A DNA stretch of 45,326 bases from a virus (taxonomy: Duplodnaviria > Heunggongvirae > Uroviricota > Caudoviricetes): positions 1 to 45,326 of IMG/VR virus record IMGVR_UViG_2778261532_000009; one strand, 5' to 3'. Below are positions 22,901 to 25,900 of this stretch, piece after piece (position 1 is the stretch's first letter; every line of letters starts with the position of its first letter). A program made the position numbers.

Positions 22901-25900
22901 TCGGATTCTGGATAAATTTACTGAGCTTACAGCAGAGCTTACAGCAGAGCTTACAGCAGAGCTTAGCATGCGTAAAAAACAATACAACTACTATCGCGAC
23001 CAGTTGTTGAGTTTTAAAGAGGGTGAGGTTGAGTGGAAGACTTTGGGAACATTTGCAGATAATTTTGATTCTCTTAGAAAACCAATAACTAGTGGATTAA
23101 GGGAGACTGGAAATATTCCCTATTATGGTGCGTCAGGCATTGTTGATTACGTAAAAGATTATATTTTTGATGATGACCTGTTATTAATTTCTGAAGATGG
23201 TGCGAATCTTATTGCAAGAAATACCCCTATAGCTTTTAGCATTAGCGGTAAAACGTGGGTGAATAATCATGCTCATGTACTTAAATTCAAAAACTACACT
23301 GAACAAAAATTTGTTGAATATTACTTAAACAATATCAATCTTACGCCGTACATATCAGGAGCAGCCCAGCCAAAGCTAAATAAGAAAAACTTAGAAAGTA
23401 TCCGTATTCCTAATCCATCACTAAAAGAAAAAGAGCGGATTGTTACTATTCTGGATAAATTCGACACCCTGACTAACTCCATCACCGAAGGTCTCCCGCG
23501 TGAAATCGAGTTACGCCAGAAACAATACGAGTACTATCGTGATTTACTGTTCAGTTTCCCAAAACCTGAAACAGTCAGTAATTAATTGACCATTGCTACC
23601 GACCGGGCCACCTTAACATCCGGTCTGTATATAGACTATTTTTTACACGCTGGAAGTCGCCCTTAAAGCTCTTCCGGCCCTTGCCAGACGGCACAAAGGA
23701 TGCGCTATGACTCATCAGACATACACCATTGCTGAATCCAATAACTTTATCGTTCTTGATAAGTACATCAAAGCTGAGCCAACAGGCGACAGCTACCAGA
23801 GCGAATCGGACCTGGAACGTGAACTGATTCAGGACCTGCAAAATCAGGGCTATGAATTTATACCCGTAAAATCACAGTCAGCGATGCTGGCCAACGTTCG
23901 GGAACAGCTTCAGAGCCTCAATGGTGTGATGTTTAATGACAGCGAGTGGCGGCGCTTCACGGAGCAGTATCTGGACAACCCCAGCGATGGTATTCTGGAT
24001 AAAATCCGTAAAATCCATATCGACTATATTTGCGACTTTATTTTTGATGACGAGCGTCTTGAGAACATCTATCTGATAGATAAAAAGAATCTCATGCGCA
24101 ATAAGGTGCAGATTATCCAGCAGTTTGAACAGGCAGGTTCTCACGCTAACCGTTATGACGTAACTATCCTGGTTAATGGCTTGCCACTGGTGCAAATCGA
24201 ACTAAAAAAACGCGGGGTGGCGATTCGTGAGGCTTTCAACCAGATACATCGTTACAGTAAAGAGAGTTTTAACAGCGAAAATTCCCTGTTTAAGTATCTG
24301 CAACTGTTTGTCATTTCTAACGGCACCGATACCCGTTATTTTGCCAACACGACAAAGCGCGATAAAAACAGTTTTGACTTCACCATGAACTGGGCTAAAG
24401 CAGACAATACACTGATTAAAGACCTCAAAGACTTTACCGCTACCTTTTTCCAGAAACATACTCTGCTTAATGTTCTGGTGAACTACAGCGTTTTTGACAG
24501 CAGTCAGACACTACTGGTAATGCGACCGTACCAGATTGCCGCCACCGAGCGCATTCTGTGGAAAATTAAGAGTTCCTTTACAGCGAAGAACTGGTCAAAA
24601 CCGGAAAGCGGTGGGTATATCTGGCACACTACCGGTTCTGGTAAAACCCTCACCAGCTTTAAAGCCGCGCGTCTGGCAACAGAGCTGGACTTTATTGATA
24701 AAGTCTTCTTCGTGGTCGACAGGAAAGACCTCGATTACCAGACCATGAAGGAATATCAGCGTTTTTCGCCAGACAGCGTCAACGGCTCGGAAAATACCGC
24801 AGGACTTAAACGAAATCTGGACAAGGACGATAACAAAATTATCGTCACTACTATTCAGAAACTCAATAACCTGATGAAAGCAGAAAGCGACCTGCCTGTA
24901 TATAATCAGCAAGTGGTGTTTATATTTGATGAATGCCACCGCAGCCAGTTTGGAGAAGCGCAGAAAAACCTGAAGAAGAAATTCAAACGCTATTATCAGT
25001 TTGGTTTTACCGGTACCCCTATTTTCCCGGAAAACGCCTTAGGCTCAGAAACGACCGCCAGCGTATTTGGTCGTGAATTGCATTCGTATGTAATTACCGA
25101 TGCGATTCGTGACGAAAAAGTGCTCAAATTCAAGGTGGACTACAACGATGTGCGGCCACAGTTTAAGTCTTTAGAGACAGAAACTGACGAGAAAAAACTA
25201 AGTGCGGCTGAAAATCAGCAGGCGTTTCTTCATCCCATGCGTATTCAGGAAATCACGCAATATATTCTGAATAATTTCCGCCAGAAAACTCACCGTACCT
25301 TCCCTGGCTCAAAAGGTTTTAATGCTATGTTGGCAGTGAGCAGCGTGGATGCCGCGAAAGCCTATTATGCGACGTTTAAACGGTTACAAGAAGAAGCCGC
25401 TAATAAATCGGCTACCTATAAACCGCTGCGTATTGCGACAATCTTCTCCTTTGCCGCCAATGAAGAACAAAATGCCATTGGTGAAATTTCCGATGAAACT
25501 TTTGATACCAGCGCAATGGACAGCAGTGCTAAAGAGTTTCTGGACGCTGCAATTCGTGAATATAACAGCCATTTTAAAACTAACTTTAGCACCGACAGTA
25601 ACGGTTTTCAGAACTACTATCGTGATTTAGCCCAGCGGGTTAAAAATCAGGATATCGATCTGCTAATTGTCGTGGGGATGTTCTTAACCGGCTTCGATGC
25701 TCCAACATTGAACACGCTATTCGTCGATAAAAACTTACGTTTTCACGGCCTGATGCAGGCATTTTCCCGCACCAACCGCATTTATGACGCCACTAAAACC
25801 TTCGGTAATATCGTCACTTTCCGGGATCTGGAACGCTCAACTATTGATGCCATAACGCTGTTTGGTGACAAAAACACCAAAAATGTGGTGTTAGAAAAGA

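Follow-up and report, generated by a model that had tools for sequence, protein, structure and literature searches.

Can the short repeat in the middle of an hsdS gene shift the target of its restriction-modification (R-M) system, and has it done so in nature? The question is raised by the virus record IMGVR_UViG_2778261532_000009 of IMG/VR, analysed here over its whole stretch of 45,326 bp (hereafter, the window). The window carries an hsdM-hsdS-hsdR operon, and its hsdS gene, coding for the specificity subunit, contains a 12-bp tandem array in which an earlier note, made from the sequence alone, had seen a likely specificity switch. Our analysis indicated that the array very probably acts as the TAEL "molecular ruler" in a type IC R-M system on a P1/P7-like phage-plasmid of Escherichia coli, of which twins with two and three copies would differ in the spacer of the target sequence. 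The array and the parts of the gene around it are listed below.

22416-23585, + strand: hsdS, 389 amino acids (aa), type IC specificity subunit (open reading frame (ORF); match to PDB chain 7bst_A; Pfam Methylase_S on the two-copy twin).
22416-22487, + strand: N-terminal conserved region of HsdS, residues 1-24 (residues 1-23 identical to EcoR124 HsdS; position 24 is V here and I in EcoR124).
22488-22835, + strand: target recognition domain 1 (TRD1), residues about 25-140, variable and unrelated to EcoR124 TRD1 (poor alignment to 7bst_A).
22836-23048, + strand: conserved central part of HsdS, residues 141-211, contributing helix D1 to the coiled coil (alignment to EcoR124 HsdS).
22923-22965, + strand: 12-bp tandem array of GAGCTTACAGCA, 3.6 copies, three TAEL by the EcoR124 convention, the putative variable ruler (direct reading, Tandem Repeats Finder, shuffles).
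23049-23414, + strand: TRD2, residues about 212-333, variable and unrelated to EcoR124 TRD2 (alignment to 7bst_A).
23415-23585, + strand: conserved C-terminus with helix D2, which pairs with D1, and stop codon (alignment; modelled helix 336-379).

Direct reading of 22923-22965 gave an exact tandem array, three full copies of the unit followed by GAGCTTA. Tandem Repeats Finder returned it with a period of 12, 3.6 copies, 100% matches and a score of 86, the highest for any tandem repeat in the window. The identity run at lag 12 was 31, whereas in 200 shuffles it averaged 7.3 and never exceeded 11. At the other periods from 3 to 30 the runs did not exceed 19, and the 19 at lag 24 was the second harmonic of the array. 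A chance origin of the array is excluded. The array starts 507 bp from the start of the ORF (22923-22416), which is 169 codons, so it is in frame, with its onset at codon 170. Its translation reads ...F168-T-E-L-T-A-E-L-T-A-E-L-T-A-E-L-S-M-R-K-K, and the three TAEL units are HsdS residues 172-183, within the central conserved helix, as in type IC subunits. Position, unit, copy number and encoded peptide all agreed with those in the earlier note.

HsdS matched the EcoR124 specificity subunit (7bst_A) end to end, query residues 1-389 to chain residues 1-404, with E = 1e-78. The order of conserved N-terminus, TRD1, central region, TRD2 and conserved C-terminus is that of type IC subunits, and the same pattern was seen in an alignment of 17 sequences. 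The likeness to the EcoR124 family that had been proposed held up in the conserved regions, which were near-identical. The central block (IP.PIPCPDNPEKSLAIQSEIVRILDKFT...MRKKQYNYYRDQLLSFKEGEVEWKTLG) differed by A170E, N184S and a 4-aa indel, and the final 44 residues (346-389, ILDKFDTLTNSITEGLPREIELRQKQYEYYRDLLFSFPKPETVSN) were identical. In the repeat segment, 7bst_A has FTALTAELTAELNMRK with two TAEL, whereas the window has FTELTAELTAELTAELSMRK with three. The unit is written with ACA GCA codons in the window and ACC GCT in EcoR124, and the array is preceded by E where EcoR124 has A; therefore the perfect tract is 43 bp long in the window. An AlphaFold2 model built from the 17-sequence alignment had a mean predicted local distance difference test score (pLDDT) of 55 and a predicted template modelling score of 0.44, and was used solely for helix assignment. 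It placed the array inside one long helix (residues 151-198, local pLDDT 57-82), with a second long helix at 336-379. These modelled helices are consistent with the D1/D2 coiled coil of type I S subunits (PMC3874165).

The nearest database relative of the protein, P0001 (385 aa), was window HsdS minus one TAEL and otherwise identical. This 385-aa form was present on 21 contigs, and the 389-aa form was indexed in 33 blocks of the collection. Either form was carried only by assemblies of E. coli, and its gene always lay at one and the same locus, flanked by phd-doc and a gene resembling polynucleotide kinase (PNK), with hsdM and hsdR intact. Ten loci of each form were compared together with the window. 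The two-copy loci (L002-L011) had their array at the position of the window array. The hsdM and hsdR flanks formed several mosaic haplotypes, with mutual differences of roughly 100-500 mismatches in most comparisons. The following pairs joined a three-copy to a two-copy locus.

Window and L018 (three copies; GCA_002464125.1, identical to the window over 21 kb) with L002 (two copies; GCA_002226535.1): 21,170 bp, 0 mismatches, 1 gap.
L013 (three copies) with L003 (two copies): 21,170 bp, 1 mismatch, 1 gap.
L015 (three copies) with L008 (two copies): 18,314 bp, 1 mismatch, 1 gap.
L016 (three copies) with L009 and L010 (two copies): 13,504 and 10,612 bp, 0 mismatches, 1 gap.
L012 (three copies) with L011 (two copies): 7,576 bp, 2 mismatches, 1 gap.

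Five backgrounds held both forms, separated by 0-2 single-nucleotide polymorphisms over 7.5-21 kb and the 12-bp indel, which was the sole gapped block in the multiple alignment of the hsd region. Because both forms occur in five divergent backgrounds, a unit must have been gained or lost recently on five or more independent occasions. Copy-number polymorphism of this kind, between otherwise identical genomes and of more than one origin, is a mark of contingency-type loci. That the array can change, as the earlier note had claimed, was borne out by the exact two-copy twin and by the five backgrounds with both forms.

Tandem repeats are prone to mis-assembly, so the copy differences could in principle be artefacts of sequencing or assembly in a coiled-coil segment of fixed length. 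We consider this extremely unlikely. The 43-bp array is shorter than any current read, and two and three copies alike turn up again and again across dozens of independently made assemblies, which come from different projects. The dimorphism is also seen in other alleles, and a four-copy allele is found in a complete plasmid.

These other alleles were examined by deleting one TAEL in silico from natural three-copy alleles with other TRD pairs, taken from complete E. coli genomes, and looking up the products exactly. Exact two-copy twins existed for 5/5 (L023, L024, L025, L027, L029), on 1 to 47 contigs. The four-copy TAEL allele (FTALTAELTAELTAELTAELNM) combines the array with the window TRD1 (L022; NZ_CP122941.1, 23638-25675); its hsdS, annotated as a pseudogene, is broken by a transposase of the IS3 family. 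Synthetic one-, four- and five-copy forms of the window allele, and synthetic three-copy forms of eight common two-copy alleles, had no exact match in the protein collection. For three or more copies these negatives were discounted, because 3/3 natural three-copy controls (window HsdS and the RefSeq proteins L023 and L025) were also missed; the absence of one-copy forms may be informative. The collection, of 5.8 billion clusters, returned no protein with perfect TAELTAELTAEL, although the gene-position index has the 389-aa form in its 33 blocks. Since natural three-copy proteins are missed, three-copy counts from this collection are biased downwards.

Within each of 10 alleles the repeat units were identical, and between alleles three synonymous versions were seen: ACA GCA, ACC GCT and ACA GCT. 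According to the primers in PMC10644984, ACC GCT is also the version in EcoR124. The identity of units within alleles, together with the synonymous differences between alleles, indicates that the units evolve in concert by repeated intra-array turnover. Such homogenisation within arrays is a further mark of contingency-type loci.

A block of about 2.1 kb (about 21856-23955), comprising the 3' part of hsdM, the whole of hsdS and the 5' part of hsdR, had essentially zero diversity among 17 loci. Beyond it, hsdM and hsdR were mosaic, with 1-4% diversity. The loci had been chosen for identical HsdS, and the informative part is the extension of the block into the flanks. Because a block without diversity lies amid divergent flanks, the hsdS cassette moves by recombination. 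Homologous recombination seems to have exchanged this specificity cassette between P1-like backbones recently.

The same process could have spread the dimorphism, by short-patch conversion or cassette exchange instead of repeated slippage at the locus. The donors would be type IC loci on the chromosome, or P1-like elements that share the cell or superinfect it. The effect on the spacer would be the same, and the array would be no self-contained switch. The cassette has clearly moved among backgrounds, and type IC conserved regions, which are possible donors, occur in about 1,200-1,300 of 5,426 complete E. coli genomes. However, this explanation needs five conversions, with tracts all falling within the invariant block, in mutually incompatible elements. 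Synonymous-site homogeneity within alleles is moreover the signature of intra-array turnover, and EcoR124 and EcoR124-3 switched in laboratory strains without a donor (Glover et al. 1983; Price et al. 1989; both cited in PMC3874165). Five confined conversions would be needed, R124 switched without a donor and the units are uniform inside each allele; for these reasons slippage or unequal exchange in situ is more likely than imported conversion, and we regard spread by recombination as unlikely. On the cause of the change, the earlier note stood less firmly than on the change itself: the slippage or unequal crossing-over that it named is inseparable here from short-patch conversion.

One of the compared loci, L020 (GCA_021128715.1, a contig of 183 kb; 14914-21170), has P1 backbone upstream of the operon, a divergent 3' part of hsdR and, downstream of hsdR, genes of chromosomal type (alcohol dehydrogenase, HerA-like ATPase, lptF/lptG, pepA-like). 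Either a P1-like element has recombined with a chromosomal type IC locus there, or the shared hsdR is the joint of a chimaeric assembly.

The three-copy form might also be a crippled enzyme, or one of relaxed specificity, that arises by slippage as a neutral or slightly deleterious product and not as an alternative specificity. A 12-residue linker (two TAEL) was present in 82 of the 92 scorable proteins among the 120 closest database homologues, and the sole four-copy allele found sits in the IS3-disrupted gene. This homologue count is biased, however, since the collection missed 3/3 natural control proteins with perfect three-copy arrays. The window allele occurs in its three-copy state no less often than in its two-copy state, and the three-copy state always comes with intact hsdM and hsdR. 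Activity with three copies is known for EcoR124II, EcoDXXI and EcoprrI, and this number has been described as the optimum (PMC3874165). A crippled three-copy form therefore seems highly improbable to us.

With the array read as a spacer ruler, the switch would work as follows. HsdS keeps its two TRDs apart by an antiparallel coiled coil, and each 12-bp unit lengthens helix D1 by four residues, roughly one turn, which in this family moves the two methylated adenines one base pair further apart. The window has the three-TAEL state, similar to EcoR124II and EcoDXXI, with an expected adenine interval of 8, and the two-TAEL twin on otherwise identical elements is in an EcoR124I-like state, for which an interval of 7 is expected. 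If a unit were gained or lost, through mispairing of slipped strands or through unequal crossing-over at the perfect repeats, the frame and both half-sites would be kept and the spacer would change by 1 bp. The predicted targets are [TRD1 half-site] N(x+1) [TRD2 half-site] for the window, and the same half-sites with N(x) for the two-copy twin. As the switch is in frame, the system would remain ON and the target alone would change, leaving the R-M system blind to the modification made by its sibling. A switched cell would bear unmodified new sites, and restriction alleviation plausibly makes the transition survivable.

The mechanism that distinguishes EcoR124I (N6) from EcoR124II (N7) has been known since 1989. 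EcoR124I has two TAEL, recognises GAA N6 RTCG and has an adenine interval of 7, and EcoR124II has three and recognises GAA N7 RTCG (PMC3874165). In hybrids, engineered changes of copy number move the spacer exactly as predicted, and changes of copy number were ascribed to unequal crossing-over at the repeat (PMC3874165). The statement of the earlier note that copy number sets the spacer in the EcoR124 family is thus supported by EcoR124I/II, EcoDXXI and EcoprrI (PMC3874165). EcoR124II with one TAEL removed restricted an altered set of T5-like phages (PMC10644984). Restriction alleviation independent of ClpXP was reported for EcoR124I (PMC3874165).

Several points weigh against a natural specificity switch at this locus. 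We infer the effect of copy number on the spacer of this particular enzyme from the literature, by homology. Some of the differences between two- and three-copy loci could have been imported by short-patch conversion and not made in situ. With only three units, the switching rate may be far below that of classical contingency loci. When a synthetic three-copy version of the widespread two-copy allele of the L026 type was searched for in complete E. coli genomes, no such twin was found among its 5 carriers, all of them two-copy, a sample too small to conclude from. The proposal of a specificity switch stood in so far as two- and three-copy variation exists in nature; the term "phase-variable" used with it implies a high rate within a clone, and assemblies give one state per sample.

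Neither TRD is related to its EcoR124I counterpart, so the half-sites are predicted to differ from GAA and RTCG, and the architecture alone should be shared with EcoR124. Solved S subunits other than EcoR124 gave only marginal matches (E 3e-05 to 8e-04), uninformative on the half-sites, and no motif was tied to these TRDs in the searchable literature. The window TRD1 is paired with other TRD2s in many E. coli alleles, and the window TRD2 is joined to a different TRD1 in L029. The window TRD1 (VSALRRGRVMSKGYLT..., 22488-22835) also sits in the C-terminal position in some other HsdS proteins of E. coli (P0117, P0102), which have the N-terminal conserved motif YLEKLLDGVEVEWLPLGE duplicated in the centre, so this TRD has moved between the two positions.

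The window TRD pair was absent from the plasmid and complete E. coli genome collections, save for a Lactococcus plasmid at 73% nucleotide identity. This conjugative plasmid of Lactococcus lactis (L001; CP064340.1, 6001-7097) has an unannotated hsdS with the same TRD pair, so this specificity is shared between phyla. The encoded protein, P0034, has 75% identity, and the 12-bp unit GAGCTTACAGCA is identical and present in two copies.

Among known systems, EcoR124I/EcoR124II (EcoR124/3, plasmid R124) have the same operon layout, full-length matches to HsdM (520 aa) and HsdR (1038 aa), near-identical conserved regions of HsdS with the TAEL repeat in helix D1, and the same dimorphism of two and three copies. 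They differ in that both window TRDs are unrelated to theirs and the carrier is a P1-like phage-plasmid, not R124. EcoprrI is a chromosomal system linked to prrC. EcoprrI (CCA N7 RTGC) and EcoDXXI (TCA N7 RTTC) are type IC systems with three TAEL and an adenine interval of 8, the state predicted for the window; their specificities differ from that of the window, and natural two-copy twins are not discussed for them in PMC3874165. NgoAV of Neisseria gonorrhoeae is a type IC HsdS with a central 4-residue repeat, LEAT/EATL, whose number varies between natural strains. In gonococcal strains, the LEAT number tracks N6 versus N7 motifs in single-molecule real-time data (PMC6789123). NgoAV differs in species, in the register of the repeat, in its truncated hsdS acting as a homodimer and in being chromosomal.

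The P7-like mcr-1 plasmid pMCR_SCKP-LL83 of Klebsiella pneumoniae has an operon at the same insertion point of the P1/P7 backbone, in the order doc, hsdM-hsdS-hsdR (annotated "EcoR124II R protein"), 3'-phosphatase/5'-PNK and pmgS (PMC5786510). Its hsdS is another allele, of 1206 bp, and the repeat was outside the scope of that report. Phasevarions of type I and III driven by simple sequence repeats likewise have a repeat tract in an R-M gene, in which a change of length alters the methylome (PMC7383803). There the repeats are short and out of frame and turn expression ON or OFF, whereas the 12-bp unit of the window is in frame and would change specificity with the protein ON. In-frame tracts between TRDs were explicitly deferred to a later study (PMC7383803).

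In gene order, homology, domain order and repeat position, which are all that sequence can test, the system belongs to the type IC family and bears the known ruler of that family in its three-copy state. We found no report of a population-level structure of two- and three-copy twins in E. coli or P1-like elements in the searchable literature, of which our coverage was incomplete. The twin structure is something to be expected from a mechanism known since 1989 and makes no new category. Its value lies in a natural and well-replicated case, one hsdS allele found repeatedly in both spacer states on otherwise identical phage-plasmids. These ready-made isogenic pairs bear on the frequency of switching and on how D1 is re-registered by a helical turn against its partner helix, a point left unresolved by Loenen et al. 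(2014; PMC3874165). They also bear on transfer barriers between close plasmids and phages, including carriers of resistance (TEM-1/Tn3 in the window).

It is possible, although we would not expect it, that the two- and three-copy states are a balanced and recurrently regenerated dimorphism, serving bet-hedging or kin discrimination in P1-like phage-plasmids and in E. coli type IC systems generally. If so, a slip of one 12-bp unit would suffice to set a phage-plasmid and its host apart in immunity from their immediate siblings, and near-identical elements would restrict each other. Negative frequency-dependent selection would keep both states at intermediate frequency, giving a population-level role to a mechanism known mainly from one laboratory plasmid pair.

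The rest of the operon and its candidate signals are listed below.

20857-22419, + strand: hsdM, 520 aa from the first ATG (ORF; match to EcoR124 HsdM; Pfam HsdM_N and N6_Mtase on sister loci).
23613-23642, + strand: promoter-like site between hsdS and hsdR, which might give hsdR a promoter of its own (consensus scan, weak, 9/12 matches).
23707-26823, + strand: hsdR, 1038 aa, intact (ORF; match to EcoR124 HsdR; Pfam HSDR_N, ResIII and EcoR124_C on sister loci).
27017-27039, + strand: terminator-like hairpin downstream of hsdR, 10-bp stem and T run.

HsdM matched EcoR124 HsdM (PDB 7bst_D) over 520/520 residues with 1148 bits, and HsdR matched EcoR124 HsdR (PDB 2w00_A) over 1038/1038 residues with 2293 bits, the homology expected of type IC members, whose HsdM and HsdR are classically interchangeable. 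On sister contigs, the gene callers start hsdM two codons later (518 aa). The hsdM stop overlaps the hsdS start by 4 bp (ATGA), and the gene order, with hsdM-hsdS as one unit, a gap of 121 bp and then hsdR, is that of type IC systems, in which hsdR has a promoter of its own. Judged from these matches, the gene is a type IC (EcoR124-family) hsdS in an intact hsdM-hsdS-hsdR operon. In the consensus scan, promoter-like sites of the region were not enriched over shuffles.

This E. coli replicon is a phage-plasmid similar to P1 and P7. In the phage collection, no record had the window hsdS, and the best match covered 33%. The operon adjoins phd-doc. One flank has the C1 repressor, a Cre-like integrase, an Ant-like protein, ORFs of pacB/pacA size, Lpa, DUF968, doc and phd, and the other has the PNK-like phosphatase, pmgS-like and phosphatase genes, the replicative helicase (ban) and a Dam-family methylase. 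A region of a Tn3-family transposon with TEM-1 beta-lactamase and insertion sequence elements occupies 1-10210, beside the Cre-like integrase gene (10775-11806), and has 99.7% identity to segments on many enterobacterial plasmids. Three tRNA genes on the - strand (Met-CAT 40379-40454, Thr-TGT 41979-42054, Asn-GTT 42057-42132) sit between the ban-like helicase (38729-40099) and the Dam-family methylase ORF of 754 aa (42808-45072), as in P1-type genomes.

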